Under the pieces are notes generated by a model. That model had not been told where the DNA came from, searched no databases, and was given only the letters and a program-made list of their open reading frames with translations. Below, in pieces: positions 2,567 to 29,133 of a DNA stretch of 32,000 nt. The DNA is from Candidatus Lokiarchaeum ossiferum (GTDB taxonomy: Archaea; Asgardarchaeota; Lokiarchaeia; Sigyniarchaeales; Promethearchaeaceae), in NCBI GenBank assembly GCA_025839675.1, contig CP104013.1, forward strand, positions 5,340,001 to 5,372,000, in the 5' to 3' direction. A program made the translations under genes and the position numbers. Every line of letters starts with the position of its first letter. Position 1 is the first letter of the stretch.

Positions 2567-3217
2567 TTACATATCTAACTCTTTTTTGAGTTTTTCAATT
2601 TCATCCTTGAGTTGATCCTTGGATCGTAAATTACTGTCAGGTTCTTCATCATCGTATAACGACATACTTTCTATTCGAGGTTCTGGAGTATCTGGCAATT
2701 GACCAGCATCTTCTAGCATGAGTTCAGTTTCCAATTGGGAAAGTTCATCATCAATATCTACACCCATATCCATTTCTGGATCCCCTGCAAATAGTTCACC
2801 TGCTTCATTAATTTGGTCGATGCTATCTTCTGCTTCTTCGGTTATTTCTAAAGCTCGCTCAGCATTAACTGTCACTGCAACATCTTTTAATTCAGTTGCG
2901 GAAGCTTCCATTGTTCCTGCAACATCTTTTATCACGCCTGCTTGTTCTAAAGCATCAAGATGCCGTTCGCTACGCATGATCATTGCATTATATTGCAATA
3001 CTTTTTGCTGATATTGCTTGTAACGAATGAGCATTGTCTTTGAGGCTTGCTTATTTCCTGCTTTGAGAAATTTTTTTGCTTTGACTTTGCATAATTGAGC
3101 TTTATTCTCATAATCCTTGATTTTGAGGTCTAATTTATGAGTTAACGTCTTAAGACGGGCTTCAGTGGTAAGCTTGTCCTTCTTTTTATCCTTTGGGAAG
3201 AGTTTCTTAAATACCAT
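2567..3217 (-). CDS. ESCRT-III subunit, Snf7 family (Vps20/32/60, CHMP4-like)
   Basis: The basic N-terminal helical hairpin contains AKKFLKAGNKQASKTMLIRYK (compare yeast Snf7 ARIFLTKGNKVMAKNALKKKK). It continues with MRSERHLDALEQAG and then an acidic half (DIDDELSQLETELMLEDAG) ending in a terminal amphipathic helix. ATG at 3217 (MVFKKLFPK) is preferred over TTG at 3229. Confidence 0.85.
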   Translation of the reverse strand: MVFKKLFPKDKKKDKLTTEARLKTLTHKLDLKIKDYENKAQLCKVKAKKFLKAGNKQASKTMLIRYKQYQQKVLQYNAMIMRSERHLDALEQAGVIKDVAGTMEASATELKDVAVTVNAERALEITEEAEDSIDQINEAGELFAGDPEMDMGVDIDDELSQLETELMLEDAGQLPDTPEPRIESMSLYDDEEPDSNLRSKDQLKDEIEKLKKELDM

Positions 3218-3308
3218 AATTGGTTTCAACTATATTATATTATAATAAAAAGGTAGCAATTGGAACTTTAATAGTTTTAGGAGGCCAAAAATTTTCCGTG
3301 GATTAGCC

Positions 3309-3947
3309 CTAATTCAAGGCTTTGTCGCGACAATAATCTTTGATCGCTTCTATTCCCTCTTCAAGAATATCAATTTCTTTAGTGGGTAAATTGCAATTAT
3401 CCATCCTGATTTGAACAAGAGATTCATAGCGATGAAGATTTTCTAATTCAAAAATGGGATTATTTGATAAATTTAAAGATTTTAAATGAGAAAACGCACA
3501 ATCTGGTATTTTTGTGATATTGTTATATGATAAGTCCAAAAATTCCAAATTTTTTAATAATCCAAGTTCATAATATGATTCTAATTGGTTTTCAGATAAA
3601 TTTAAAGAGATTAATTTAGTCAAAGAAATCATTTGTTCTAAAGCAGACGATTTGAGCTGGTTTCCACTGAGATTTATAATTGTTGCATTTTGGCATCCAT
3701 CAATATTGCGGAGTTTTTTTATCCGGTTAGAAGGAACTTGAATTTTATTAAGGTGGGGAAAATTCCCAAACTGTCTGGGAATTAAGGCCAATCCAACAGA
3801 AATTAATTGTATTTCAATCACATGTCCATTTGAAACGCTATAATTGAATCCGAAAGAATTATCTAATATATTCATTATGCTTTGAATACTGCGCCTTTCG
3901 TTGACGTCTTTGATTAACTTCAATTTTAATTTGGGATTGAAAAACAT
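3309..3947 (-). CDS. leucine-rich repeat (LRR) protein, SDS22-like 22-residue repeats
   Basis: About 6 consecutive LxxLxLxxNxL units, e.g. LISLNLSENQLESYYELGLLKN / LEFLDLSYNNITKIPDCAFSH / LKSLNLSNNPIFELENL. The track start is TTG at 3956; ATG at 3947. Confidence 0.85.
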   Translation of the reverse strand: MFFNPKLKLKLIKDVNERRSIQSIMNILDNSFGFNYSVSNGHVIEIQLISVGLALIPRQFGNFPHLNKIQVPSNRIKKLRNIDGCQNATIINLSGNQLKSSALEQMISLTKLISLNLSENQLESYYELGLLKNLEFLDLSYNNITKIPDCAFSHLKSLNLSNNPIFELENLHRYESLVQIRMDNCNLPTKEIDILEEGIEAIKDYCRDKALN

Positions 3948-4259
3948 CTCGCTCAATTTGATTTTATGTTTATTACTTTTATAATTTGCTTATCACTTTT
4001 CATCAAGAGATTCAGACAGAACATAATACTAAGGACTGCAGATCCAAACCAAAATTTTCATTAATGAATTCTACAATTAATGGTTTAGGTGTCCTAAATA
4101 AAAAGGTCAACTTTATATGTTGCTTCTTTTTCGAAATAGAGCACCCCATGGTATCCTCACTCACTGACAAGAATATGGACTATCTTGGAAAATCCGTTTT
4201 ATCCTAATTTTGAAAAAAAATGAGATAAAATTTTTAACCAGATTTAGTTTCAAAGAGAC

Positions 4260-5141
4260 ATGAAAACACGTATAATTAATCTCGCGGGATTTTCATTGAT
4301 TGTGCTTTTATTGTCTAACACTCTAACTTCTGTCGATGCTGTCACAAATTTTCCAACTTGGGTGCCACAAAATACTGATATCGAAGATTTTACCTTACTA
4401 TGGAATGAAACCACTTATTCTGAAAATTTTATTTGTAGTGAAGCTGAAAATCTATCGGTTTATAGCCAAGTGTGGTATAGAAACAATTCACAAGACGAGA
4501 CGGTAAGTTTTATTGCATCGGCTATCACTGATTTAGATTTAGATATTCTAAATGAAAAGTTAAGCTGGCAGATGAATCTACTTGTTGCAATTGGTTTTCC
4601 TGAATTTACAGGTAAGACATCTTGGGATTTGTTTATTTTTATACTTAACCAAACTTATGGGGAAATGGGAGAAGTTACCAGTGAGCTTGCTAACTGGGAA
4701 GCTGCTTATGAGTGCAATACTACCGGGTCTATTTTCAACTATTTCATCATCGGTATGGTTGATGAGTCCAAAATGGCTCTTAGTTTTGCCCTTGAATTAA
4801 ATTCGAACTATTGGTGGACACTTTTGGATGATCAAATGGGACAAATAATAGGTGGGATTGTGTCGACATTATTGAAACTTGCGGCTTTTATTTCCACATT
4901 GGGAATTGAATGTCCCGAATCCAGCGGGGATCCTGCTGTTCCAGTTTCTCAAATTTCAAAAGGGGTGATTGAAGAATCGCAATACACCAGTCGGGAAGAT
5001 ATGGTCGATTTCAATTCAAAAATGGGCACTTTTATAAACCCAAAAGCCGCAATTCCAGGGTATTCTATTGGGATCATGGTTGGGACATTCCTTTTAATCT
5101 GTCCGATTTTGTTCGTTATTGAATTTAAGAAGAAACACTAA
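4260..5141 (+). CDS. secreted or surface protein with an N-terminal signal peptide and a C-terminal PGY-TM-KKKH anchor
   Basis: The N-terminus MKTRIINLAGFSLIVLLLSNTLTSVDA looks like a signal peptide. Several NxS/T sequons are present. The C-terminus is IPGYSIGIMVGTFLLICPILFVIEFKKKH (motif, hydrophobic helix, basic tail). Confidence 0.6.
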   Translation: MKTRIINLAGFSLIVLLLSNTLTSVDAVTNFPTWVPQNTDIEDFTLLWNETTYSENFICSEAENLSVYSQVWYRNNSQDETVSFIASAITDLDLDILNEKLSWQMNLLVAIGFPEFTGKTSWDLFIFILNQTYGEMGEVTSELANWEAAYECNTTGSIFNYFIIGMVDESKMALSFALELNSNYWWTLLDDQMGQIIGGIVSTLLKLAAFISTLGIECPESSGDPAVPVSQISKGVIEESQYTSREDMVDFNSKMGTFINPKAAIPGYSIGIMVGTFLLICPILFVIEFKKKH

Positions 5142-7301: not shown

Positions 7302-8507
7302 TTGTGGAAAGAAGTTGAAAAATTCGAAAAAAGTGGAGACACTGACAAACTTATTAAGGTGTCTGTATCAGATCTAATAGAAATTCGCGAGAACTTAATT
7401 GATTTCGAATGGAAAGCTATTAAGTATGAAAAGAAAATATCAGAACTTTCTAAGAACCAAACTTCTGAAATGAAAATTAGGTCAGAAAAACAAGATGAAG
7501 CTTTAAATCTAGTGAAACAGAAAGAAATTGATGAACTTAAAAGAATGATTGAGGATAAAACTCAACTTATTGATACTCTAAATCAAAAAATATATTTTTT
7601 AAGCACAGTTGTAGAGATTGATCAAATAGGTGTATCTGATCAAGGTGCCCACATTGCTATAGATACGGAAATTCGAGAGCGGGATGCTGAAATAATAAAA
7701 TTGCAGAATATTATTTCGGATTTGGAACTTAATAATCGTTCAAAAGATCTCAGTTCCCTTGAAATTCAATTAGAAAAATTAAAGAAAGATGCTCAGACTC
7801 AAATTGAAATTTTAGAATTGAAAAATCAAGAATTATTTAATGCTAAATCTTTGGTGGAATCTCAGCTTGAGAAGATAAAAAAAGATATTCAAGTTCAAGC
7901 AGAAATCCTAGAATTCAAAAATCAAGAATTAGTTGATGCTGAAACAAAAATTAAATCTCAAAAAGCAGAGTTTAATCAAGCATTGATTGAATTTGATGAA
8001 GAAAGAAAGAGAATGGTTCATGATCTTGCTTTGCAGAAAGAATCTTCAAGTACTGAGCAGAATATGCAAAAATCCGCAATGAAAAAGATTGAAACAGAAA
8101 ATAATTTGTTACAAGACAAAATTATTCAAAAAGATTTGAAAATTGAGGAGCTAAATCGTGTTGTTACTAAGTTCAAATTTCAGACTCATTCTGTAGATCT
8201 TACTGAAATGGCCAAAAAAGATGAAATGATTGCTCAGCTGAAAATTAGTTTGAAAAAGGCAGAATATAAATATAACGAAAGTCGAAGAAAAATTGAAAAG
8301 TCTCAAATTCAGCAATCCCATGTATCTAAATTAAGACAAAATGCAGTATGTCCTGCAAAACGTAATCAGATCATTTCTAAATCGAAAGAAAATGATCCAT
8401 CGATAGCCTTGTTTCAACAAGAATACACAAGTATGGTTCGGAAAACTAAGCAGATGAAAGGAATATTTCAGCAAGATGGTCAATCCAATAACTCCGCTTT
8501 TAAATAG
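7302..8507 (+). CDS. coiled-coil protein, unknown function, with an internal 32-aa tandem duplication
   Basis: Heptad-like K/E/Q/L-rich sequence throughout. The only in-frame start near the 5' end is TTG at 7302, so the start is uncertain. T8 at 8540-8547 follows the stop. Confidence 0.6.
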   Translation: MWKEVEKFEKSGDTDKLIKVSVSDLIEIRENLIDFEWKAIKYEKKISELSKNQTSEMKIRSEKQDEALNLVKQKEIDELKRMIEDKTQLIDTLNQKIYFLSTVVEIDQIGVSDQGAHIAIDTEIRERDAEIIKLQNIISDLELNNRSKDLSSLEIQLEKLKKDAQTQIEILELKNQELFNAKSLVESQLEKIKKDIQVQAEILEFKNQELVDAETKIKSQKAEFNQALIEFDEERKRMVHDLALQKESSSTEQNMQKSAMKKIETENNLLQDKIIQKDLKIEELNRVVTKFKFQTHSVDLTEMAKKDEMIAQLKISLKKAEYKYNESRRKIEKSQIQQSHVSKLRQNAVCPAKRNQIISKSKENDPSIALFQQEYTSMVRKTKQMKGIFQQDGQSNNSAFK

Positions 8508-9425: not shown

Positions 9426-10889
9426 CTAAAATACATTTGCTATTTTCAATTTGATCATCTGTTCCGCAGAAAGATCTGTAAATCCTTTTGATTCCATCAT
9501 TTCGATAAAAGATATTGATACATCATGAATCAGCATCTCCTGTATTTGCTGTAAGGTAATAGAGGTAAATTTATTTTTCATTTTTCTTACAAATGATGGT
9601 GTAGCATTGTGAATACAAAGTTTTTTTGCTTCAATTAGTTGGAAAGTAAATTCTAATTCTTTCAATTGTTTCAGGAAGTCAATACTCACATTATGAATTG
9701 CACATCTTTGAATTTCTTCTAATGTAGAACTGGGGAAACCTAATTCTCTAATGTTTCTGATATAATCCAGAGAAACATCATGAATACGGAGATTTATTAA
9801 ATCTTCAGTTGATATATTCGTGTATCCCATATCAAAAATACCTTGAATAAAATCTACTGAAACTCCATGAATGCACATTTTTACAAATGAATTAGCACTA
9901 ATATCTGAAAAACCGAATTTGTACATTTTTTTGACCAGTTCTGGGGTGCATCCATGTATTGAAAAGTCGATATATCGATTTATTGTGAGATCTTTAAATC
10001 CAACTTCATGAAATTTGGCGATATATTCTGGAGTTACATTGTGGATTGCCATTTTTTTCAAATTTGATAATGAAATATCAGTAAACCCTAAATCCTTCAA
10101 TTTGAAAAATGTTTCCATCTTTACATTATGAATTCTTAATTTCTTAATCTCAGAAAATTCAATATTTTCAAATCCTGCTTCTTTCAGTTGTCCAATGAAG
10201 GTAGGTTCAATTGAAAAGTTTTCTGCATCAATTAGATCTGTGATGCTTAGTTCTCCAACTCCTGATGCTTTCAGTGCCCTAACTTTTTCTGGGTTAACAT
10301 TATGTATACGCATTTTAACAATTTGATTCGGAGTTGGCTGATACCCAAGATCATTCAATTCATGAATATACTGTGGGGTCACATCATGAATCTGGAACTT
10401 CACTATTTGGGATGTAGTTAAATCAAATCCCAATTCAATCCATTTTTGAATAATTGCACTTTTAACCCCATGGATAGAGAATTTAACAAGTTCATCAAGT
10501 GAGATTGTTTTATATCCGAGATTATGGATTTCTTGTATGTATTCTAAACGAACTTGATGAATTATTGATTTCACCATTAAATCATCTGAAATATTAGTGT
10601 ATCCAAAACTATTCAAACCTTCTTTATATTCTGGTTTGACATGTTTAAGGATTAATTCCTTAATTATAGATAACGTTAATTCCGTTCGTTCTAAATTTTT
10701 TATCTCAACATAAAACTCTGCAGTTACAAAATCACTTACATTGTTGATCAAATTTTCAAATGATTCTCCTTGAAAATTTCGGCTTTGAAGGTATTCACGA
10801 TCCAGCACACGTAGTGCTTTCTCTGCATCTTCTGGTGAAATTTCTCCTGAAGCGACCTTTCCTAAAATATCTAATCTATTTTGTTCCAT
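9426..10889 (-). CDS. tandem-repeat protein, about 13 x 28-29 aa 'IH[NDG]V...G[FY]' units, unknown function
   Basis: Repeats are read directly, e.g. IHGVKSAIIQKWIELGFDLTTSQIVKFQ / IHDVTPQYIHELNDLGYQPTPNQIVKMR / IHNVTPEYIAKFHEVGFKDLTINRYIDFS. The N-terminal LGKVASGEISPEDAEKALRVL is a SHOCT-like helix. Confidence 0.75.
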   Translation of the reverse strand: MEQNRLDILGKVASGEISPEDAEKALRVLDREYLQSRNFQGESFENLINNVSDFVTAEFYVEIKNLERTELTLSIIKELILKHVKPEYKEGLNSFGYTNISDDLMVKSIIHQVRLEYIQEIHNLGYKTISLDELVKFSIHGVKSAIIQKWIELGFDLTTSQIVKFQIHDVTPQYIHELNDLGYQPTPNQIVKMRIHNVNPEKVRALKASGVGELSITDLIDAENFSIEPTFIGQLKEAGFENIEFSEIKKLRIHNVKMETFFKLKDLGFTDISLSNLKKMAIHNVTPEYIAKFHEVGFKDLTINRYIDFSIHGCTPELVKKMYKFGFSDISANSFVKMCIHGVSVDFIQGIFDMGYTNISTEDLINLRIHDVSLDYIRNIRELGFPSSTLEEIQRCAIHNVSIDFLKQLKELEFTFQLIEAKKLCIHNATPSFVRKMKNKFTSITLQQIQEMLIHDVSISFIEMMESKGFTDLSAEQMIKLKIANVF

Positions 10890-11186
10890 TTTTTACTCAC
10901 ATACCTTCAATCATTGTGGGGTTAGATGACACTGCCATCTATATTTGTTAGAAGCCTTGATGTCGGAGTAAAATTTATCCACCAATTCCTCGAACCAATG
11001 ATCGATTAAGAGAGTATCATCATTTTGAATATAAAAATGTTTAGCATTTCTATCAGAAATTAGTTCTATTTGATAGTAGGAATCATGGTAAGCATGTAAT
11101 TTATTTACTCAAATTTGGGTAAATTACCTTCATTTAGTTCTTAAAATTGAGTAATCTTTTTATATATTGTGAGTATTGATATTCTT

Positions 11187-11867
11187 ATGAGTAATTTATC
11201 TCTAGAATCTAATGAATCTCTGGCGCCATTACGCTCTTCAGAAACAAGTAAGAAAAGCAGAATAACATTAGACATCGCAGGTGCTGCAATTTTTAGTGCA
11301 CTTTCAGTTGTATTATCATTGTTAACTACCGAAATGTTACCACGCATGGCATGGGGAATTGCATATTTTGATCCTGTTTCAATTATTTGGTTAACAGCAT
11401 TCCTTGTTTTCGGATTTCGATGTGGTATCTTTACTGCAATTATTGGCTCTATTGGATTAATGTTTTTTGATCCAACACCATTTGTTGGTCCTGTTATGAA
11501 ATTTGTTGCTACAATTTGGTTAATGATAGTTCCTTATTTCATCATTCAACTTTCAAAAAGGCGAACTTTAACGGGTCAAGATATGAAAAAAAAGAAGTTT
11601 TATATTCAAAGCGCTTTGATTGCCTGGGGAATTCGATCCGTTGTAATGATTGCTTTGAATTATTTATACATTGCTTTCGTTTTTGGTGGGGTTGAGACTA
11701 TTCCATTCTATGATATGTCTTGGATTGGATTAGGGATGATAACATCAAATATTGCCATTATTATATCTGTATTTTTGTTAAATACCATTCAAACCATTGC
11801 AGATGTATTCCTTCCCTATTGGTTAATCTTTTCAACCAAAATTTATGATCATTTTCAAATTTATTAA
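11187..11867 (+). CDS. polytopic membrane protein (weak resemblance to the ECF-transporter S-component / substrate-capture type)
   Basis: About 5-6 hydrophobic segments. The first helix LDIAGAAIFSALSVVLSLL resembles S-component N-terminal helices, which is a weak match. The track start is GTG at 11169; ATG at 11187 (MSNLSLES). Confidence 0.55.
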   Translation: MSNLSLESNESLAPLRSSETSKKSRITLDIAGAAIFSALSVVLSLLTTEMLPRMAWGIAYFDPVSIIWLTAFLVFGFRCGIFTAIIGSIGLMFFDPTPFVGPVMKFVATIWLMIVPYFIIQLSKRRTLTGQDMKKKKFYIQSALIAWGIRSVVMIALNYLYIAFVFGGVETIPFYDMSWIGLGMITSNIAIIISVFLLNTIQTIADVFLPYWLIFSTKIYDHFQIY

Positions 11868-12785: not shown

Positions 12786-13099
12786 TCATTTTCATCATAT
12801 TATCAAGAAATAATTTTTCTATTCATTTTTTTTTGAAGTTTTAATTGATATTTTCAAAAAAAGAGTCAAATCTTCAAATAATAATGTGGGAATAGAAATA
12901 TTTCCTAAAGCTTTATAATTTTTTGAGAAAATTTCTATCCTATCAATATGTTTTGATCAAAATTTTGGAAAATACTATGTACTTTTTTGCTAATGTTCCA
13001 AATTCATATTAAATTAATTCAAATCGAAACAAATTATTCTTAATTTTCACGGGAAATCTAATAAAATACATTTAAATTATTCAATCGCCTTTTTTGAGT

Positions 13100-13999
13100 A
13101 TGGGAATTTTTAGTTTACTTAGAAGAAAAACTAAACAAAAATCCGTATTTTTAGGATTGGATAATTCGGGAAAATCCACAATCATATCCTTTTTGAAAGA
13201 AGGTAAATTTGTCGAACATACTCCAACAATGGGAAAAGATTTGCAGAAATTGGAAATCGATGGGACCCGGTTTTTGTTGTTCGATATGGGAGGGCAATCA
13301 CATTTTAGAAAAATGTGGACTGGTGAAATGAAAGATTCAAAATGTGTAGTTTTCGTAATTGATGCTGCTGATCCTGATCGTTTTAATGAATCTAAATCCG
13401 AATTACAAAAAGTTTTACCTTTAATTGCTGGAAAAGATATGAAATTACTAATTCTTGCTAATAAGTCTGATAAACGTAATGCAATACCTTTAGATCAACT
13501 CATTGATATTTTCGAACTTAGTAATCTTCCAAATTTTGAAATAATGTCCATTTCTGCCAAAACTGGACTAAATATGGCTGATGCTTTTGTGAAATTCTAT
13601 TCGTTATTAACAGGAAAAATGTTAAAAAAAAATACAGTGACTCAAGCAATCTCTATTTTTGATCCAAGCGGTCTTCCCATAATTACTCGATCCAAATCAG
13701 ATCATGATGATAGAGATATATTGGAAGGTGGTTTTATAACTGCAATTACTCATTTTGGTAAAATGAAAAATAATGCAAATTGTATCAAATTCGAAAGTGA
13801 AAATGATGGTGTTTATGTCATAAAAAGAACAGAGAATTATATTGGGGCTTTATTATGGGATGAAAATTTGGACATTCCAATTGATGATACTGAAAGTGCC
13901 TTGGATGATCTTTTAAATCATTTAGAATCTTCTCTCAAGTTTAAAGATCACGAAGAAGTTGCATATTATGTAAGTCAGTATTGCACAAACATGATATAA
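13100..13999 (+). CDS. Arf/Sar-family small GTPase with an extra C-terminal domain of about 115 aa (Roadblock/longin-like by pattern)
   Basis: G1 is VFLGLDNSGKSTI (Sar1: LFLGLDNAGKTTL). G2 is TPTMG, G3 is LFDMGGQ, G4 is NKSD and G5 is SAK. VVFVIDAADPDRFNESKSEL matches Sar1 IVFLVDAADPERFDEARVEL. The N-terminus is MGIFSLLRRK. Residues from about 183 to the end form an additional alpha/beta module. The track start is TTG at 13094; ATG at 13100. Confidence 0.9.
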   Translation: MGIFSLLRRKTKQKSVFLGLDNSGKSTIISFLKEGKFVEHTPTMGKDLQKLEIDGTRFLLFDMGGQSHFRKMWTGEMKDSKCVVFVIDAADPDRFNESKSELQKVLPLIAGKDMKLLILANKSDKRNAIPLDQLIDIFELSNLPNFEIMSISAKTGLNMADAFVKFYSLLTGKMLKKNTVTQAISIFDPSGLPIITRSKSDHDDRDILEGGFITAITHFGKMKNNANCIKFESENDGVYVIKRTENYIGALLWDENLDIPIDDTESALDDLLNHLESSLKFKDHEEVAYYVSQYCTNMI

Positions 14000-14063
14000 T
14001 GTAAATAAGGCTAAAATTTCATCTTTTTTTTATAAATGATCAATATCAATAAGGTAAAACATT

Positions 14064-14564
14064 ATGGCAATGCTAATTTCAAAATCGATAATTACAAGTT
14101 TAGGTGGATATAGTGGTTCTAATCCAAAAATTCTTAAAGTTTTCCCCAGTTCTCCAGATTTACTCAATGAAGATGTTTTAGAAATATGTTTACCCACAGG
14201 AGCTGTGCCAAATGAATTCTTTTTAAAGGAATATCAAAAAACTAAAATTTTGATTTATACCTTTGAAATCGAAAAGGAAGAAGAACGTAATGATTTAGGA
14301 TCCATTAGTTTTGGAATTGGATCAGAAGTTGAAGTAAATAATCTGAAATCTATGATTTTATTAATTTTTAATTTTCTCAGAAGAAATAATATTCTTTCAT
14401 TTCTAATTTTAGAAAATGCTATGCCTGAAATGATAGATGCTTTAAATAACGAGGGTAAAATTCAATTTACTGATTCATATTGTATGGATATCAAGCGAGA
14501 ACTTAAAGCAAATAACATTAAGTTAGAGAAAGTAAGTAGGAAACGTAGAGGTGGAATGATTTAG
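14064..14564 (+). CDS. soluble 166-aa protein, unknown function
   Basis: ORF with no hydrophobic segments. Its stop TAG overlaps the GTG start of the next gene by 1 nt (TAGTG). No family is recognised with confidence. Confidence 0.6.
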   Translation: MAMLISKSIITSLGGYSGSNPKILKVFPSSPDLLNEDVLEICLPTGAVPNEFFLKEYQKTKILIYTFEIEKEEERNDLGSISFGIGSEVEVNNLKSMILLIFNFLRRNNILSFLILENAMPEMIDALNNEGKIQFTDSYCMDIKRELKANNIKLEKVSRKRRGGMI

Positions 14565-15217
14565 TGGCTACTTTTGAAATTGTCGTCAGGAACATATCTT
14601 CTATTTTAGGTTTACTTATATTACTCTTGCTACTAGTATTCCTTTATTTTAGGAATTTTAAGGATTTTAAAGAGTATGGTGAATGGAATTGGACACGGGT
14701 AGTTCTTTCTTTAGGAATTTTCATTAATTTCCTTGATCGACTTTTGTTTGTGATATTTTACATCTTTGATTGGAAATTTACCACAGATAGCATGATGGCG
14801 GATTCAATTTATGCCGAACCGTATTTATCTTATCTTGGTATTTTGAAAGGATATCTTGTTGTATTTGGGGCATTTTATGTGTTATATTTAAATCAGAAGG
14901 ATGAAATGTTAATTGCTCCAGTATTGCTTTATTCAGGTGCTCTAGTGCTATATTATACTGCCCAAGTCATCTTATATCATTATATCTTTATTTTTTGTGC
15001 AGGTGTAATCACTTTATTCCTTTTAAATGAGGCTGGATGGAGTATGAAAGATAATAATGCAATGGGCCTAGGTCTAATGTACGTTTTCATTTTTATTGGA
15101 GGAGTTATACCAAATGCGGTTGTTTCAAATATAATTCGTTTAGTCGCTTATCTTATTGGATTCACAATCATAACTGGAATATTCAAGATATTTAAAAACA
15201 AAGAGGAAGAAGAATAA
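14564..15217 (+). CDS. integral membrane protein, about 7 hydrophobic segments, unknown function (paralog A)
   Basis: Seven hydrophobic stretches by eye and a charged C-terminal tail, KNKEEEE. The GTG start overlaps the upstream stop, and its own stop overlaps the next ATG (TAATG). Confidence 0.7.
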   Translation: MATFEIVVRNISSILGLLILLLLLVFLYFRNFKDFKEYGEWNWTRVVLSLGIFINFLDRLLFVIFYIFDWKFTTDSMMADSIYAEPYLSYLGILKGYLVVFGAFYVLYLNQKDEMLIAPVLLYSGALVLYYTAQVILYHYIFIFCAGVITLFLLNEAGWSMKDNNAMGLGLMYVFIFIGGVIPNAVVSNIIRLVAYLIGFTIITGIFKIFKNKEEEE

Positions 15218-15879
15218 TGGTTTCAGAACAGATTTTAATGTTTGTAGAAATAGGAAATTCGCTATTTGGTTTTATTGGGATCTACTTAGCAATTAAACAG
15301 TGGAAAAAGTATAAAAATCCTGCTGATATATTCGTAGTATTAATAAACCTTCTTGCAGTTGGAGCTGTATTATTTTCAGCGTTCACATTCTTACTTATTG
15401 GGTATTTTCCAGAAATCAATCTTGCTTTCAAGATAGGTAATCTTCCTATTGAGTGGATCTTTAAGATCGGGATAAGTATGATGTATATGATATTCATGGT
15501 ATATCTGTTAGAATGGAAATTTCTTTATACTGTGCCCTTCATTGTTGGGTTATACTTTTTCTTATATGGATTTCATACTGGAAATGAAAATATCCTCAAT
15601 ATTTATCTTGGGACAATAATTTTTTCGGCTATATGGTTGATTTATAATGCAATCAAGAATAGGAGTGGATTATCTTTAGGGCTTTTTATTGTAGCTGTTT
15701 TTTATGCTATTAGTACCCTTATTAGTGATTTTCTATTTTTATACTATTTATTCCGATATTTAATGTCTATTTCACTGATTCTTGGAATTAATGGATGGTT
15801 TGAAGAAAAAATACTATATAACCGAAAAGAAGAAAAGAAAATCCAAAATACATGGATTGCTCGAGCCACCAGATCTTAA
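15217..15879 (+). CDS. integral membrane protein, about 7 hydrophobic segments, unknown function (paralog B)
   Basis: Similar length (220 vs 217 aa) and topology to paralog A. Both share a K-rich loop after TM1, an [DE]WKF motif, a GLxLGL motif and a charged tail, NRKEEKK. Confidence 0.7.
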   Translation: MVSEQILMFVEIGNSLFGFIGIYLAIKQWKKYKNPADIFVVLINLLAVGAVLFSAFTFLLIGYFPEINLAFKIGNLPIEWIFKIGISMMYMIFMVYLLEWKFLYTVPFIVGLYFFLYGFHTGNENILNIYLGTIIFSAIWLIYNAIKNRSGLSLGLFIVAVFYAISTLISDFLFLYYLFRYLMSISLILGINGWFEEKILYNRKEEKKIQNTWIARATRS

Positions 15880-16058
15880 TTTGCACATTTTTTCTTTATT
15901 TTAAAAAAAGTAATATCAATATATGGGAAAAGTGTTTTTCTTTATGTAGTCCTTCAAAATCAGGTTTTCAGTAATTTTATTACCATTACTTTGTATAGTA
16001 TTGAAAATGAAAATCTTGAAATAAGAAAAATGAATATCTAAAAAGACCGCAAAAAAGA

Positions 16059-16520
16059 TTAATTTGGACTAATTTTATCCAAATCTGACAAATCCAATCC
16101 TGCACCAATATCTTCAGGCATTTCTGATAAGAATTCGTCTAAAATATTACGTAATTCATCTCCAGATCGTTTTAATACAAGGCGAATTAACCCCAAGTTG
16201 ACATCAACATCAGAGATTAAACATAGTACCCCTTTCCCACAAGAAGCAGCAAAAATCTTCCCTCCTTCAAATTCAGAAGTGACGATCTGTAATGCTCCTA
16301 ATTCTAAATTTCTTCCTTGTTCTTCTGATGCGCAGAAAACTGCACTTGCGATGGCTCCAATGCCATCAACATCCATTGGAATATATGAGAACTTGGAAAC
16401 ATGAGCAATTGTTAAACCGGTTCGATCAACCAAAATGACCTTTTTGATACCGGATTCGGATTTAATAATTTTACTGAGGATTACATTAAATGATTTAGTT
16501 GAAAGTGCCATAATTTTCAT
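16059..16520 (-). CDS. Roadblock/LC7 (MglB-like) domain protein
   Basis: GIKKVILVDRTGLTIAHV...GAIASAVFCASEEQGRNLELGALQIVTSEFEGGKIFAASCGKGVLCLISDVDVNLGLIRLVLKR matches the Robl_LC7 pattern (xxVxlvDxdGlxia ... ANlGlvr). It also has an acidic C-terminal tail. Confidence 0.85.
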   Translation of the reverse strand: MKIMALSTKSFNVILSKIIKSESGIKKVILVDRTGLTIAHVSKFSYIPMDVDGIGAIASAVFCASEEQGRNLELGALQIVTSEFEGGKIFAASCGKGVLCLISDVDVNLGLIRLVLKRSGDELRNILDEFLSEMPEDIGAGLDLSDLDKISPN

Positions 16521-16828: not shown

Positions 16829-17470
16829 TTATTGGACAATTTGGATTCCTTCATGTTCCATTTTATCTAAAGAAATTTGAATATTATTTTCTGGTTGATC
16901 AATTCCTTTTGTTAAATTTTGCAAGAAAAAGACTTCAAAACCTTCCTTTTTTGCATCAATGGCTGTATAGAAGCAACAATAGTCCAAAGCAAGTCCACAA
17001 ACAAATATTTTTCTTACATTTAAATCGTTAAGCAACCCCGTCAATCCAGTTTTAGTTAGTTTATCATTTTCTAAGAAAGCAGAATAGCTGTCAATTTCTT
17101 TTCGATATCCTTTTCTTAAAATTGCTGTAGCATAAACAATTTGCAATTTTTCATTGATTTCTGCTCCCTTTGTTCCTTGTATGCAGTGATCTGGCCAAAG
17201 AATTGGTCCTAATCCTGCTGTTTCGATAACATCCCCTGGTTTTTTACTATCATATACACTAGCGAAGGAATGGTGGCCGATTGGATGCCAATCTTGAGTA
17301 AAAATAATTTTTCCTTGATTCTCATGAAATTTTTGAATTAAATCATTTATTTGTGGAATTATACGATCTCCTTCAGACACCGCTAAAGATCCTCCGGGCA
17401 AGAAATCATTTTGCATATCAACTACAAGTAATGCTGAATTAGCACTAATTTGAATATCGTCAATTTTCAT
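16829..17470 (-). CDS. pncA: nicotinamidase/pyrazinamidase (isochorismatase family)
   Basis: ALLVVDMQNDFLPGGSLAV, DWHPIGHHSF, WPDHCIQGTKGAE and VCGLALDYCCFYTAIDA are catalytic and metal-site motifs of PncA. Its start lies 2 nt after the pncB stop. Confidence 0.9.
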   Translation of the reverse strand: MKIDDIQISANSALLVVDMQNDFLPGGSLAVSEGDRIIPQINDLIQKFHENQGKIIFTQDWHPIGHHSFASVYDSKKPGDVIETAGLGPILWPDHCIQGTKGAEINEKLQIVYATAILRKGYRKEIDSYSAFLENDKLTKTGLTGLLNDLNVRKIFVCGLALDYCCFYTAIDAKKEGFEVFFLQNLTKGIDQPENNIQISLDKMEHEGIQIVQ

Positions 17471-17472
17471 CT

Positions 17473-18657
17473 TTAATCACTCTTCTTCATTTTTTCTGAA
17501 AAAACTTTTTTAAGATATTTTAAGTATTCCTCATCGTTACACATGCCTTTTTCAGGACTATCTGAGATTTTAGCTACAGGTTGTCCATTACATCTAACCA
17601 TCTTGATGACAATTTGTAATGGATTTTGATTTGGGATATCATTAGTTAAATTTGTTCCGATCCCAAAGGAGACTTGAATTCGTGATTGAAAATGTTCCAA
17701 AATCTTCCTGGCGATATTAAAATCTAAACCATCACTAAATACAATAGATTTCGTCCAGGGGTTGATCTTCATCGCTTCATAATGCTGAATTATTTTTTCA
17801 CCAACTATGAAAGGATCTCCTGAATCATGTCTTACTCCATCATATAACTTGCTGAAATATTTATCAAAATCAAATAAAAATGCGTCAATTCCCACTATGT
17901 CTGATAATGCTATACCTAAATCTCCTCGATATTCGTCCACCCATTTCTGAAGCATAAATTTTTGACTATCTATCAATCTGACGCCCACAGCTTGTCCTGC
18001 TTGTAACCATTCATGAGCCATAGTTCCGATTGGTTTGATATTGAACTGTTTTGCTAGTGAAATGTTGCTCGTTCCAACAAAATTGACTAAATTGAGTGGG
18101 GAATTCACCAATTCATTAATAATTTGTTTCTGCCAAGAATAAGAGAATCTTCTACGTGTTCCAAAGTCTGCAAATTTAAATTTATTACCCAATTTTTGAA
18201 CAAAATGCATTTTTTGTTCTAATAATTTCATTGCACCATTGAAATCAGGATTTTGTACATTATTTGAAAAATAAATTTGGTTTACAATAGCTAAAATTGG
18301 AACTTCAAATAAAATTGTTAATAACCAGCTACCTTCAATTTTAATATCTAATTCTTTGTTTTCAACGGTTAGTTTAACGTGATCCGGATTTAACCTAAAA
18401 AATTTGAGAAAATCAATGAAATCCTTCTTCAAGAAGGATAATGATTTCAAATAGTCCAACTCATCTTTTTTGAATGAAAGAGAGCAGAGATGGTTGATCT
18501 CCCTTTTAATTTCGTCACTAAATGGGCTTAAATCAATGTTTTCTGTACGACACTTAAATTCGTATAAAACTTCAATATCTGGGAAGAAATGGAGGACACC
18601 TTGCATCATAGTAAATTTGTAGAGATCATTGTCCAGTAAGCTATTTATTATAGGCAT
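17473..18657 (-). CDS. pncB: nicotinate phosphoribosyltransferase
   Basis: Colinear with bacterial PncB: LLDNDLYKFTMMQ, FADFGTRRRFS, FVGTSN, GTMAHEWLQA, GVRHDSGDP, VSFGIGTNLTND and VAKISDSPEK. Confidence 0.9.
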   Translation of the reverse strand: MPIINSLLDNDLYKFTMMQGVLHFFPDIEVLYEFKCRTENIDLSPFSDEIKREINHLCSLSFKKDELDYLKSLSFLKKDFIDFLKFFRLNPDHVKLTVENKELDIKIEGSWLLTILFEVPILAIVNQIYFSNNVQNPDFNGAMKLLEQKMHFVQKLGNKFKFADFGTRRRFSYSWQKQIINELVNSPLNLVNFVGTSNISLAKQFNIKPIGTMAHEWLQAGQAVGVRLIDSQKFMLQKWVDEYRGDLGIALSDIVGIDAFLFDFDKYFSKLYDGVRHDSGDPFIVGEKIIQHYEAMKINPWTKSIVFSDGLDFNIARKILEHFQSRIQVSFGIGTNLTNDIPNQNPLQIVIKMVRCNGQPVAKISDSPEKGMCNDEEYLKYLKKVFSEKMKKSD

Positions 18658-24192: not shown

Positions 24193-25593
24193 TTATTGCA
24201 TAGAAATAGAATATTTTGGATTGAAATAGATGATCAATTCCTTATGTTTAAAGACGGGCAATATTTTATCCTTAGCATATTCCAAGTATACTTTGATTTC
24301 AAGAGTATCATCAATTAGTTTCTCTTCAAATTTAATCAAAATTTCCCCAAATCCATACATGTTCCCAATCATATTCGAAAAATTCCAATAAGCTTCTCCC
24401 AAATTTGATGACGATGAATTCAAATATGCAATTTTAATGTTGAAAAAGGAAGTTTGGTTGATCAATTTGATCTTTGATGGGTTACTCGCAATATTTTCAA
24501 TTGTAAAGTTTCCAGATGTCCATCTTTCTCTCGGAATACTATCCCAATATGACATCGTTCCGCATATTCGAATTGGTTTGAAACATGGTACAACCTTGAT
24601 GTAACACTTTGAATCAAGTGAATTCAAAGAAAAATAGATGTTATCGGCATTTGGGGATGTAGATTTTTTGGTGGTATAATAATTGCTTCCATTTTTATTG
24701 AGGAAACCTGTAGGTGTGACTAATTTAAAATGTTCTTCTGTGATTTGAGAGGAAATAATAAAATTTGTTGATTGATTAGGTGCCCAATATCTGGCTTCTA
24801 TAATTCCACCATTTTCCAATAATACTTCCACATTATTTTTCTTTTCAAAGTGAGAAGCCCATCGAAAATCTAAAAGTTTTTCAGATTTAGTTTTAACTTC
24901 AAAAATTGCTGGGTTTTTAAAAAGAATATTCCATGAATCACTTGATATTGCTCCTGTCGATGACTCGCAAAAAATGTTTTGAGAAAAGTTAATAAAATCC
25001 ATAAAAAGGTTGATATTTCCTTGTTTTGAAGAACATATTAAATCAGAATGGATTGAACATTGTTCAAGGTTAAGATTAATATCACCTGAAGAAGATTGTA
25101 TGTCAAAAATCGCGAATGATGCGTTTTTTGCTTGAATTTTGAAATTTCCTGCTTTTGAATTACTTCCAATGGAGTAGTTTTCATAACAAGGATCAATATA
25201 AACCGTGAAATCACAAAAAATTAGTTCTTGAATCGGAGAAATCAACTTGTTTTTGCGAGAGATACTAATTATTAAAGTATCCTTATCAATTTTTTCAGAA
25301 AAAATTAGTTCTAAGGGATATCTCGTTGATTTTTGACTATATGTTATATTCCAGTTTGCTTCATAGATATTTTTGGTTGCATTTGGTATGATTTTAATGT
25401 TAACATCTATATCTGATGCGAGGTAATTTAATTCTACATTTTTGAATTTTCCAATATCTGATGTTTCTAATTTATATGTTCCAAAATAATCTTGCTTAGT
25501 CAAAAATTCTGATGTAATCACAACAAAACTTGTTGTAGAAATGAGGAATGAACTAATCAGAATCAAAACTTTCATATTTTTTTTCATTTTCAT
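24193..25593 (-). CDS. secreted or membrane-anchored beta-rich protein with an internal domain duplication (possible DUF4097-like adhesin core)
   Basis: The N-terminal MKMKKNMKVLILISSFLISTTSFVVI is a signal or anchor sequence. There are many NxS/T sequons. The central part holds SSSGDINLN / SKQGNINLF / SSTGAISSD repeats. The start is uncertain: the track has TTG at 25644, and several ATGs lie between 25626 and 25575. Confidence 0.6.
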   Translation of the reverse strand: MKMKKNMKVLILISSFLISTTSFVVITSEFLTKQDYFGTYKLETSDIGKFKNVELNYLASDIDVNIKIIPNATKNIYEANWNITYSQKSTRYPLELIFSEKIDKDTLIISISRKNKLISPIQELIFCDFTVYIDPCYENYSIGSNSKAGNFKIQAKNASFAIFDIQSSSGDINLNLEQCSIHSDLICSSKQGNINLFMDFINFSQNIFCESSTGAISSDSWNILFKNPAIFEVKTKSEKLLDFRWASHFEKKNNVEVLLENGGIIEARYWAPNQSTNFIISSQITEEHFKLVTPTGFLNKNGSNYYTTKKSTSPNADNIYFSLNSLDSKCYIKVVPCFKPIRICGTMSYWDSIPRERWTSGNFTIENIASNPSKIKLINQTSFFNIKIAYLNSSSSNLGEAYWNFSNMIGNMYGFGEILIKFEEKLIDDTLEIKVYLEYAKDKILPVFKHKELIIYFNPKYSISMQ

Positions 25594-25802
25594 TTTTCTC
25601 AATAAATTTATATAGTGAACTTTCATTTTTATATTTTCACACAATTTGGGATTTGATGTAATTAGAAAAAATGATTTTTTAAATATATTCTACTAGTGCA
25701 TTATATGATTAAATTGAACAAAAATGAAAATTAGGCCAAAAGGATTAAAAAAATTATCAAGTTGCTAGAAAAAGTGTAAGAATTGCTGAATTTAAAAAAA
25801 AC

Positions 25803-27062
25803 CTAATTGGGAATCATTACTTTTAATTTTATATCTTCAAAGGTTTCTTCACATACCATTTTTTGTAATTCATTTCTATCATTTCCGACTTTTTCAAGTA
25901 ACTCTTTGAATTCTCTTTTTCTACGATTTAAATCGTTTTCAAAATGTTCAAAATCTATTGTCAATGTAGCTATTTTATCTTTTAATTCGTTTCGTTTCTG
26001 TTCCAAACCTTTCTTTTCAAGAATCTTCTTGCATTCCGCTTTTTCATCTCGTATTTGGATTATTTCTTTGATATTTTCTTCCAAAGAATTTTCACTTACA
26101 ATCTGATTAATATTCTCAATTATTCGTTCACGTAAATCTGATTTTAATTTAAGTGGATCATGTTCATCTTCTAACATTAATCTTGTTTTAATTAAAATTT
26201 GTCTTAATTGGGGGATTTTTGGGCCATCATTAATTATATTTGTTACTGGTGATTTAATATATGCTTTAATTTGATCTGGTCGCATTTCTCGTGCTCTGAT
26301 GCTTCCTTTTTCTAATCCTTTGAGTAATTTTTTAAATGCTTTCTTGAATTTTAAAGAATCAGAAAGTTGTGTTGATTTTGATTGTTCTAAAGTCTCAATC
26401 CTTTCAAGATTTTGTAAATCTGGATCTTTACTTAAATTAAATAAACTTTCTTCCATCTCTTTAAGTTTATCACTCATTTGTATTTTTTCTTGATCTAAGG
26501 CTTCAATTTTGGATTTTGTGGTTCCTAACCTTTCAATATTATTATTTAGTAATGGAATTTTTTTCAATAGTCCTTCAGCATTTTTTCCATCTTGATAATT
26601 TTTTAGCATGTATTTGTTAACTTTTGCACTGATGTTCCCCATTTTTCGAAGGTGCATATCAATTTCTTTAATTTCAATCTTGTATGCTTTTCCAAATCGA
26701 GGGATACTCTTTTTGCCTTGATTATTATATATTCCATAGACTTTTTTTATGCCATCGATGAAATTCATTGAGTTTTCGTAGGTTATATCAACATGGACGG
26801 TCGGAATTTTAACTGATTCCAGTGTTTCGACAACATTATCAATAAAACGTTCCATAATTGATTGATTTTTTGGATCAAGTGGTTCTTCTTCATTTGCTAA
26901 CGTTCTTTGGGTCCATGTGCGCAAAGATGTTCTTGCTTCTGCCATTTCACGTTCTGCGTTACTGAATAACTTAGTAAGGAGTTTATGTTGTTTTTTAAAC
27001 CGCGTTTGCAGCGATTTTAGATACCATTCTTCAAGCTCATCAAGTGGGATTTCGGTGGACAT
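25803..27062 (-). CDS. helical/coiled-coil protein, unknown function (about 420 aa)
   Basis: Long ORF, K/E/L-rich with heptad-like stretches, especially in the C-terminal 120 aa. The track start is TTG at 27068; ATG at 27062. Confidence 0.6.
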   Translation of the reverse strand: MSTEIPLDELEEWYLKSLQTRFKKQHKLLTKLFSNAEREMAEARTSLRTWTQRTLANEEEPLDPKNQSIMERFIDNVVETLESVKIPTVHVDITYENSMNFIDGIKKVYGIYNNQGKKSIPRFGKAYKIEIKEIDMHLRKMGNISAKVNKYMLKNYQDGKNAEGLLKKIPLLNNNIERLGTTKSKIEALDQEKIQMSDKLKEMEESLFNLSKDPDLQNLERIETLEQSKSTQLSDSLKFKKAFKKLLKGLEKGSIRAREMRPDQIKAYIKSPVTNIINDGPKIPQLRQILIKTRLMLEDEHDPLKLKSDLRERIIENINQIVSENSLEENIKEIIQIRDEKAECKKILEKKGLEQKRNELKDKIATLTIDFEHFENDLNRRKREFKELLEKVGNDRNELQKMVCEETFEDIKLKVMIPN

Positions 27063-27174
27063 TTTCAATTACTAGTAAAGAAAGGTCGGATCTTTAAAAA
27101 TTTTTAAGCACAATTAGTACAAGACAATGAAGGTAGTGAGTGAAAAAAGATTGTGAAAAATATGTTCTAAGTGG

Positions 27175-28929: not shown

Positions 28930-29133
28930 TAGTAAACCTCTTTTTGAGAAACATTAAAAAGATTTTTTCACAAATTCACCAAAAATTGAAAAAAGTAACA
29001 AATTTTGAATGGAAATGGATAAATTTTGATAAAAAGTTAGAAAATAACATTTAGAATAGACAAAATCTAATTCTATTTTCTTAATTTAAACAGAAATTTT
29101 TTTATCAATTGTTTGTTATAGGTTAAATTGAGT

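Follow-up and report, generated by a model that had tools for sequence, protein, structure and literature searches.

Which proteins control the small GTPases of Asgard archaea? These organisms encode dozens of small GTPases and many Roadblock/longin proteins, and the matching of regulators to GTPases is essentially unknown. Their GTPase genes are generally not in operons with Roadblock/longin genes, which makes it hard to match GAPs (GTPase-activating proteins) and GEFs (guanine nucleotide exchange factors) to them (Tran et al., PMC10933270). Here, we describe a locus of Candidatus Lokiarchaeum ossiferum that raises this question. The window, i.e. the whole stretch of DNA that was analyzed, is 32,000 nt of the 6.03-Mb genome (contig CP104013.1, positions 5,340,001–5,372,000). 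At 13100–15879 of the window, on the forward strand, lies a cassette of four genes encoding an Arf-type GTPase with an additional C-terminal domain, a 166-aa protein (P166), and two proteins with ~7 transmembrane (TM) helices each (TM-A and TM-B). For one GTPase family, the cassette is a concrete genomic answer: an Arf-type GTPase is encoded together with a predicted longin protein that has an invariant Arg, and with two dedicated membrane proteins. We are confident that the four genes are a functional module. Structure models suggest that this module could be a membrane-docked longin GAP for an Arf-like switch, a reading that we judge about as apt to be right as wrong.

A conserved four-gene cassette

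The preliminary description of this locus, made from sequence alone, proposed a five-gene unit consisting of a GTPase-Roadblock fusion, an orphan protein, two 7-TM paralogs and a convergent Roadblock/LC7 gene. The open reading frames (ORFs) that it listed were all confirmed, as were a TAG/GTG overlap (14562–14566), a TAA/ATG overlap (15215–15219) and a T8 tract (14024–14031). The GTPase ORF (13094–13999) begins with a TTG at 13094; the database protein P0001, which is 299 aa long and 100% identical, begins with MGIFS at the ATG at 13100, and we place the gene at 13100–13999. It is followed by a 64-nt spacer (14000–14063) that contains the T8 tract, the element ATAAAT and a Shine-Dalgarno-like AAGGT, and then by the genes for P166 (14064–14564), TM-A (14564–15217; 217 aa, GTG start) and TM-B (15217–15879; 220 aa). 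All four proteins are 100% identical to UYP48256–48259. In Pfam searches, only the GTPase (Arf) and the Roadblock protein (Robl_LC7) were matched; there was no match for P166, TM-A, TM-B or the C-terminal 120 residues of the GTPase. Public annotation of the GTPase and of P166 is misleading: NCBI and UniRef list the Arf-type GTPase under the name “GTPase Der”, and for the other three proteins the entries read “hypothetical” or “uncharacterized”. A further UniRef label for P166, “DUF835 domain-containing protein”, was not reproduced when 38 family members were scanned against Pfam at E ≤ 1.

To what extent do these genes stay together? A GTPase-anchored scan of a genome collection identified 34 loci, and a TM-A-anchored metagenome scan identified 39 further loci, giving ~80 loci overall. 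The scan queries were a full-length GTPase alignment and a sub-alignment of TM-A from type-2 loci (defined below), since alignments of the C-terminal domain alone or of all TM-A sequences are insufficiently conserved for patterns. Cassette members at each locus were found with iterated hidden Markov models built from the window proteins, as far as the contigs reach. The architecture of a GTPase plus C-terminal domain (~300 aa) occurs in ~89 full-length homologs that are 40–91% identical. The P166 gene is immediately upstream of TM-A in 62 of 64 testable cases, TM-B is immediately downstream of TM-A in equally many (62/64), and a GTPase with the C-terminal domain (~300 aa) adjoins the cassette in 41/41. 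Even at loci where the GTPase is only 54–56% identical and the flanks are wholly different, packed genes for proteins of ~165, 210–240 and 220 aa still follow, and these are homologs of window genes 2, 3 and 4 (BLASTP E 1e-19 to 1e-40; 25–40% identity). Because the arrangement recurs in ~80 independent loci, it is far beyond chance, and the proposal of a coherent, conserved, membrane-associated GTPase module is borne out.

There are two gene orders. In type 1 (GTPase ≥ 47% identical to that of the window), the order is GTPase > P166 > TM-A > TM-B; in type 2 (GTPase ~40% identical), it is P166 > TM-A > TM-B > GTPase. Junction lengths were obtained by a direct nearest-start test on non-redundant loci. 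The P166 > TM-A junction is between −8 and +5 nt in 55 of 59 loci, and the TM-A > TM-B junction is within the same range in 59 of 62, so the tight coupling of genes 2–4 noted in the window extends to the family. The median gap at the GTPase junction is 13 nt for type 1 and ~232 nt for type 2. The whole block has been duplicated at two loci, once in tandem (L014) and once inverted (L035). Pairwise distances within the four families are correlated (r = 0.78–0.93), with the highest correlation for GTPase and P166, and each family independently recovers the split between type 1 and type 2 (44/45 cases).

An alternative explanation for this pattern is that the genes are neighbors through the shared ancestry of close genomes, with no functional link. 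Indeed, many type-2 loci are from related metagenome-assembled genomes (MAGs) that have wider synteny in common. However, the cassette persists at 25–55% protein identity among wholly different neighbors, it exists in two gene orders and as duplicated blocks, most loci have 1-nt overlaps, and the cassette is recovered from a GTPase anchor or a TM-A anchor alike. We consider shared ancestry alone to be effectively refuted.

The exceptions are few. GTPase+P166 pairs that lack TM genes of their own occur in three loci, in each of which they adjoin a complete cassette (L006, 5098–6491 (−); L007, 436–1840 (+); L081, 7001–8455 (+)). The existence of three such pairs points to GTPase and P166 as the tightest pairing, and these two genes may be a minimal unit that shares the neighboring TM proteins. 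TM-A-like genes are solitary at two loci, L072 (1567–4262) and L074 (595–1275), where they encode proteins of 226 aa with no adjacent P166, TM-B or GTPase gene. The TM-A-like gene of L072 has as neighbors two paralogous unannotated proteins, of 281 aa (with an N-terminal zinc ribbon) and 295 aa. Their “LRSxFxKKxILLxSD” motif resembles a DENN core, but a DENN identity has no Pfam support.

The T8 tract had raised the caveat that the GTPase is perhaps transcribed apart from the other genes. This caveat holds for the Lokiarchaeum pair but not for other type-1 loci, with their median gap of 13 nt. The spacer is 64–69 nt long in both Lokiarchaeum genomes, and its T7/T8 tract, ATAAAT and AAGGT elements are kept in the sister locus (L001, 1610–1684). 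In this lineage, the spacer may serve to attenuate or partly terminate transcription, or it may hold an internal promoter.

Does the cassette include the fifth gene? An MglB-like Roadblock/LC7 gene (16059–16520, reverse strand) converges on the end of the operon, and the preliminary description treated its product as the dedicated regulator of the GTPase, either as a GAP or as a partner of the C-terminal domain. The gene is real: the protein matches Pfam Robl_LC7 above the cutoff (2e-9), its best PDB match is MglB (5e-5), and it lies 179 bp from the TM-B stop codon (180 bp in the first count). Its NCBIfam MglB score is 25.7 bits against an equivalog cutoff of 200. No other GTPase is encoded in the window, and the position of the gene is kept in the sister genome L001, a 91%-identical relative, where the Roadblock protein is 100% identical. 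Nonetheless, the position in L001 is uninformative because the whole downstream flank is syntenic (nicotinamidase, NAPRTase, AspRS, TruD). Among all other genome and metagenome loci, no Roadblock homolog adjoins the cassette, and ten small unannotated ORFs next to other cassettes have no Roadblock or longin domain in direct Pfam scans. The gene is also on the opposite strand, and the cassette encodes a predicted longin regulator of its own. Hence, the unit has four genes rather than five, the Roadblock gene is an adjacent neighbor and not a member, and its product is very unlikely to be the dedicated regulator. In Lokiarchaeum, the two may still have a functional link that is specific to this lineage. 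Over 150 aa, L. ossiferum and L001 (3694–4146 (−)) have 100% identity in the Roadblock protein; since the cassette proteins of this pair are 75–91% identical, the Roadblock gene is under far stronger constraint than its neighbors.

The cassette is confidently present in Lokiarchaeia/Promethearchaeota, Sigynarchaeum included. Distant matches to the GTPase were found in Heimdallarchaeia and Helarchaeota MAGs, with no cassette there. The labels “Hod-” and “Hermodarchaeota” that some MAGs carry are unreliable, as identity of their proteins to proteins from “Promethearchaeota” MAGs with the same synteny reaches 92%. For example, the GTPases of L029 (“Hermodarchaeota”) and L019 (“Promethearchaeota”) are 92% identical within the same extended synteny, and labels are also inconsistent for L018, L025, L015 and L010. 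Because phylum labels are inconsistent, taxonomic breadth by MAG label is unreliable. One typical type-1 cassette was found in a “Bathyarchaeota” bin.

Several other genes recur near type-2 cassettes, encoding an FAD oxidoreductase, a TPR protein, an amidohydrolase, a phosphatase, a thioredoxin and TrmB. These look like lineage synteny and we do not count them as members. In 16 type-2 loci, a gene ~1.5 kb upstream of the cassette (e.g. L019, 2691–3443 (+), and L017, 2628–3392 (+)) encodes a protein of ~250 aa that combines an N-terminal longin (Fuz_longin_1, 4e-4) with a GTPase domain, and an FAD-dependent oxidoreductase gene lies in between; this recurrence, too, may be lineage synteny only. 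In L033 (10060–13315) and L037 (10070–13337), two tandem genes for GTPase-domain proteins of ~520–560 aa are ~2 kb downstream of the cassette GTPase.

The GTPase and P166

The G domain (residues 12–171; 13133–13612) belongs to the Arf family, as first described. It matches Pfam Arf over residues 7–166 with 126.8 bits against a cutoff of 22.3 (8e-37), and its P-loop, switch I Thr, DxGGQ, NKxD and SAK motifs are intact. In a PDB profile search, the Asgard ArfR structures 8oun, 8oul and 8oum come first (E 1e-38 to 1e-35; 35% identity by fold), ahead of Arl3, Arf1 and Arl1; the ArfR/Arl/Arf matches span E values of 1e-38 to 1e-31. Similarly, the top Foldseek matches of the GTPase model are ArfR, ARL1 and ARF1. 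We liken the protein to ArfR by profile and fold; a place in the ArfR clade, as opposed to the older “ArfL” group, is putative. Rag and Gtr proteins are missing from the top 60 PDB profile matches, and the window GTPase has no Pfam Gtr1_RagA match, although some orthologs have weak ones. A match to G-alpha is partial and sub-threshold (30.5 versus 48.8 bits). Across 132 unique homologs, G19, G24, K25, T27, T43, D62, G64, G65, N121, K122 and D124 are invariant, and the catalytic Gln of DxGGQ (Q66) is present in 130.

The N-terminus, MGIFSLLRRKTKQK (13100–13141), is basic and amphipathic, and is predicted to be an Arf-type membrane-binding helix. Its consensus among the same 132 proteins is MG-[ILV]-F-x-[IFL]-[LFI]-[KR]-[RK]: G2 is found in 114, positions 3, 4, 6 and 7 are hydrophobic, and K or R occupies positions 8, 9 and 14. 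The mean hydrophobic moment is 0.51, as compared with 0.35 for shuffled residues and 0.57 for Arf1, and the net charge is ~+4. In characterized ArfRs, the N-terminal amphipathic helix is responsible for membrane binding, and the helix of the cassette GTPase may act likewise. The AlphaFold2 (AF2) model of the GTPase has a pLDDT of 88 and a pTM of 0.84, with residues 1–9 below a pLDDT of 50.

What is the additional C-terminal domain? It was initially taken for a Roadblock module. In the AF2 model, residues 183–297 (13646–13990) form strands E183–187 and E193–198, helix H205–221, strands E228–233, E237–243 and E248–253, and helices H261–278 and H284–297 (DSSP). By the definitions in PMC10933270, the resulting order, beta-beta-alpha-beta-beta-beta-alpha-alpha, is that of a longin, whereas a Roadblock domain has the order alpha-beta-beta-alpha-beta-beta-beta-alpha. 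On this criterion, the modeled domain is longin-type and unlike the C-terminal Roadblock dimerization domain of Rag/Gtr GTPases, although both are of the same superfamily. The domain has no match in Pfam and no sequence match in the PDB; an assignment to Roadblock by sequence was also rejected, as there is no BLASTP similarity to the neighboring Roadblock protein, and hhalign detects no similarity to P166. G191 (130/132) and P193 (129/132) form a G-x-P just before beta2, the tail Y294-x-T-N297 is invariant (N297 in 132/132), and at position 243, 78 of the 132 sequences have R and 46 have K, leaving the domain with no invariant Arg. In having G-x-P but no invariant Arg, it resembles the non-catalytic partner in the pairs NPRL2-NPRL3, FLCN-FNIP and SMCR8-C9orf72. 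The sole full-length structural alignment of the GTPase (~300 columns) is to LokiRagO, a Lokiarchaeal GTPase that is RagA-like (8yl2; 17–20% identity, TM-score 0.48–0.50). Since the G domain is of the Arf family and the only full-length alignment is to LokiRagO, we describe the protein as an Arf-type G domain in a Rag-like two-domain format.

P166 was described as an orphan, but it has at least 104 distinct homologs and, on modeling, the fold of a longin domain of NPRL2 type. Its AF2 model (pLDDT 87, pTM 0.82) has the order beta-beta-alpha-beta-beta-beta-alpha-alpha, then a short C-terminal element and a basic tail (net charge ~+4), where the protein ends; there is no DENN domain. No match to P166 was found in Pfam or NCBIfam, or by sequence in the PDB. 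By contrast, all seven Foldseek matches at E ≤ 1e-3 are chains of NPRL2/Npr2, which carries the arginine finger in GATOR1/SEAC (E 3e-5 to 8e-4, TMq 0.55–0.60). The next matches are NPRL3, the Lokiarchaeal longin 8yqg, FLCN, DENND10 and Lst4, and CPLANE/Fuzzy is also among the fold matches.

R75, D77 and L78 are each invariant in P166 (104/104). The loop with R75 (codon CGT, 14286–14288) sits between strands E60–69 and E77–85, i.e. beta4 and beta5 of the model, and the arginine finger of longin GAPs is located between beta4 and beta5. GAP longins are distinguished by a “GP motif”, which is found where the loop ahead of beta2 ends (PMC12290439). In P166, this site is occupied by S19-N20-P21-(K/E)22 (14118–14129; S19 in 101, N20 in 90, P21 in 97 and E22 in 91 of 104), with beta2 beginning at residue 22 in the model. 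In the GTPase longin, G191-x-P193 is at the corresponding site. The equivalent of R75 in NPRL2 would be R78, which we checked against the sequence of 6ces_N. The only hhalign alignment to place R75-N76 on R78-N79 is non-significant, and because the sequence similarity is not significant, the equivalence rests on fold match and loop position only. These observations make P166, rather than the Roadblock protein, the likely regulator of the GTPase, and R75 a candidate arginine finger.

Alternatively, the longins of P166 and of the GTPase could together be a platform with a GEF or scaffold function, which would activate or tether the GTPase at the TM pair in the manner of Mon1-Ccz1, TRAPP or Ragulator; the Arg would then have a role in structure or in partner binding. 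Dimers of longin or Roadblock domains serve in most cases as GEF platforms or scaffolds, the link between P166 and NPRL2 is at the level of fold only, the GP motif is non-canonical, and longins of DENND10, CPLANE/Fuzzy and Lst4 are also among the fold matches. On the other hand, the top seven fold matches are without exception NPRL2/Npr2 chains, and a fully invariant Arg in the beta4-beta5 loop, followed by an invariant D-L, is the proposed hallmark of longin GAPs. We regard the GEF/scaffold alternative as unlikely, but as one to be taken seriously.

The membrane proteins

TM-A and TM-B had been called similar-sized paralogs with ~7 hydrophobic segments, and this number was confirmed for each. 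The paralogy is distant: BLASTP detects no similarity between them (E = 0.58), but a profile comparison with hhalign gives a colinear alignment of 177 columns (97.3%, E = 2e-11). That the two are paralogs suggests that they could form a heterodimer. Hydropathy and the positive-inside rule predict an N-out/C-in topology for both, and conserved residues of TM-A and TM-B are concentrated in the predicted cytoplasmic loops and tails. The most conserved motif of TM-A, D163-N164-x-x-x-G168 (15050–15067; family consensus RVKDNGALGL), is in the loop predicted between TM5 and TM6, with D163 and G168 invariant and N164 nearly so. Other conserved residues of TM-A (N42, R45, Y108, N110, G205 and F207) are in predicted cytoplasmic loops or the tail, and TM-B has a conserved W213-I214 in its cytoplasmic tail. 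The TM-A family is small, with 40 cluster representatives among 1.84 billion proteins; as all are 85–281 aa long, no member carries an extra domain. In one sub-branch of type 1 (Sigynarchaeum-like), orthologs of TM-B are 321–358 aa rather than ~220 aa long and have an extra C-terminal region (L009, 3790–4755; L011, 4265–5341; L013, 9231–10196; L081, 5951–6982).

Neither protein has a match in Pfam, NCBIfam or the PDB beyond scattered short-TM noise (Mim2, TgpA_N). They are thus not an ordinary transporter family. We also rejected two specific candidates. A SWEET/PQ-loop 3+1+3 repeat is not apparent, as hhalign of N-terminal against C-terminal halves gives a probability of 0.3% for TM-A and 4% for TM-B, and there is no PQ-loop/MtN3 match in Pfam. 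GPCR/heterotrimeric G-protein signaling lacks a Pfam or PDB match for either TM family, and the G-alpha match of the GTPase is below threshold.

Could TM-A and TM-B nonetheless transport a substrate? As a transporter or “transceptor”, comparable to SLC38A9 with Rag-Ragulator or PQLC2 with C9orf72-SMCR8-WDR41, the pair would have its substrate state reported or controlled by the GTPase and longin; this possibility refines the longin GAP reading and can hold alongside it. In eukaryotes, multi-pass transporters of the lysosome, among them the 7-TM PQ-loop protein PQLC2, recruit longin-GAP complexes, and TM-A and TM-B have ~7 helices each and a strongly conserved cytoplasmic face. However, they resemble no transporter family and have no SWEET/PQ-loop repeat, conservation is in loops and not in intramembrane polar residues, and there are no conserved substrate-related genes nearby. 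We find a transport function doubtful.

A broader, and also rather improbable, extension of the longin GAP reading is that the cassette is an archaeal receptor-to-GTPase unit, in which a TM-A/TM-B heterodimer would sense a ligand, a nutrient or the state of the membrane, and would gate the action of an NPRL2-like arginine-finger GAP on an Arf-like GTPase. If true, this would be a prokaryotic counterpart, and possibly a forerunner, of lysosomal longin-GAP nutrient sensing (GATOR1-Rag-SLC38A9 and C9orf72-SMCR8-PQLC2-Arf), contained in one operon.

A possible mechanism and its relation to known systems

How might a membrane-docked longin GAP work? We propose that P166, TM-A and TM-B are made in fixed proportion from their translationally coupled genes, that TM-A and TM-B would assemble into a heterodimeric membrane platform, and that P166 would dock on the conserved cytoplasmic loops of this platform. 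The GTP-bound GTPase would reach the membrane via its N-terminal amphipathic helix. There, its C-terminal longin would pair with the longin of P166, as in NPRL2-NPRL3, FLCN-FNIP and SMCR8-C9orf72, and Arg75 of P166 could enter the nucleotide pocket and complete the active site, stimulating GTP hydrolysis. The TM pair would then set where, or in response to what, the switch goes off.

Several points weigh against this mechanism. Rather than being GAPs, longin domains mostly act as GEF platforms or scaffolds. The motif of P166 is S-N-P and not G-P, with Asn in place of Gly, and at the sequence level the protein has no significant similarity to NPRL2 (hhalign probability 0.9%, E = 0.06; unconstrained pairwise z = −0.2 versus shuffles). 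The predicted topology of TM-A and TM-B comes from hydropathy only. A GAP that is permanently paired with its substrate would need extra regulation, and none was identified. The four-way linkage is not absolute, given the GTPase+P166 pairs without TM genes and the two solitary TM-A-like genes. In type 2, the GTPase, ~230 nt downstream, is probably transcribed separately. Lastly, co-divergence of the four families is shared inheritance and no proof of physical contact.

The module fits the theme of small GTPases with partners of the Roadblock/longin superfamily, as the preliminary description recognized. Among known systems, those most relevant to the longin GAP reading are the eukaryotic longin-GAP complexes: GATOR1 (NPRL2-NPRL3-DEPDC5) for RagA, FLCN-FNIP for RagC, and C9orf72-SMCR8-WDR41 for Arf, the last recruited by PQLC2. 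Like these, the cassette has a protein modeled as a longin (P166), with an Arg between beta4 and beta5 and a Pro-containing motif before beta2. It also has a second predicted longin, the C-terminal domain of the GTPase, as a possible dimer partner, an Arf/Rag-like GTPase as the putative substrate, and associated multi-pass membrane proteins. Unlike them, P166 is a bare longin of 166 aa with neither a DENN nor an NPRL2 C-terminal domain, and it has S-N-P for G-P and no significant sequence similarity to NPRL2. Moreover, the GTPase itself carries the putative partner longin as a fused domain, equivalents of DEPDC5, WDR41 or Ragulator are absent, and the membrane partners are 7-TM paralogs from the same operon.

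The GTPase shares with Asgard ArfR (HodArfR1, GerdArfR1; 8ouk, 8oul, 8oum, 8oun) a conserved N-terminal amphipathic helix and a G domain for which ArfR is the nearest match, both in profile comparison (E 1e-38 to 1e-33) and in fold comparison (35% identity). It differs from the characterized ArfRs, which are single-domain proteins of 160–220 aa, in its extra C-terminal longin-type domain of ~120 aa and in being locked in an operon. The combination of a G domain with a Roadblock/longin-superfamily domain at the C-terminus is also found in Asgard Rag-like fusions (the “GTPase-RB/longin” of MK-D1 and LokiRagO, 8yl2) and in Rag/Gtr; such GTPase-RB/longin fusions are often annotated as Arf (Tran et al., PMC10933270). 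However, the N-terminal amphipathic helix is a feature of Arf and not of Rag/Gtr, and the C-terminal domain has the longin order in its model, not the Roadblock order. A true tandem Rag-like pair lacks the cassette: in a Helarchaeota locus (L080, 5001–6922), there are two tandem 308-aa GTPases with strong Gtr1_RagA matches, in the same arrangement as the Rag-like heterodimer reported for MK-D1. Some 2.7 kb downstream of them is an actin-family gene.

In the MglA-MglB polarity switch and the actinobacterial conservon (CvnA-D), a small GTPase is likewise encoded beside a regulator of the Roadblock/longin superfamily, and the conservon also has a membrane sensor. In contrast to MglA-MglB, the GTPase of the cassette is Arf-type, the conserved regulator is a predicted longin, and the nearby MglB-like gene is not conserved with the cassette. 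In contrast to the conservon, the cassette has no histidine kinase and no DUF742 protein.

Is the system new? The claim that it matches no described system holds in part. GTPase-longin/Roadblock fusions and NPRL2-like longins are known classes that have already been described in Asgards, and Ca. L. ossiferum has been noted as enriched in them. The conserved neighborhoods of eukaryotic signature proteins reported by Liu et al. are those of ESCRT and of a LAMTOR1-like + Rab-like + DENN operon. We found no published description of the operon or of the two 7-TM families, which are apparently undescribed; an earlier mention elsewhere, e.g. in supplementary asCOG tables, is possible. Asgard longins with GAP motifs have been proposed as GAPs in a study that asks whether ArfR or Rag GTPases are their partners (PMC12290439, Traffic 2025). 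With the cassette, the closest relatives of eukaryotes offer one of the rare GTPase-regulator pairs that are open to testing: Ca. L. ossiferum is in culture, and the four proteins are small. Questions that can be addressed are whether GAP chemistry based on longins is older than eukaryotes, by what means an archaeal Arf-like switch is attached to a membrane, and what role a new 7-TM family plays.

The genes flanking the cassette are ordinary. They encode an ECF-transporter S-component-like protein, a methyltransferase, and a nicotinamidase/NAPRTase pair for NAD salvage (11169–11867 (+) and 16829–18657 (−)), and at greater evolutionary distance they are not kept beside the cassette. Elsewhere in the window there are large ORFs (293–584 aa) without a Pfam match at E ≤ 1e-3, at 4260–5141, 7302–8507 and 9426–10889 and in a run of four within 24193–30432. 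The window also has further genes of eukaryotic-signature type: a Snf7/ESCRT-III-like gene (Pfam Snf7 4e-13) adjoins a gene for a leucine-rich-repeat protein (2567–3229 (−) and 3309–3956 (−)).

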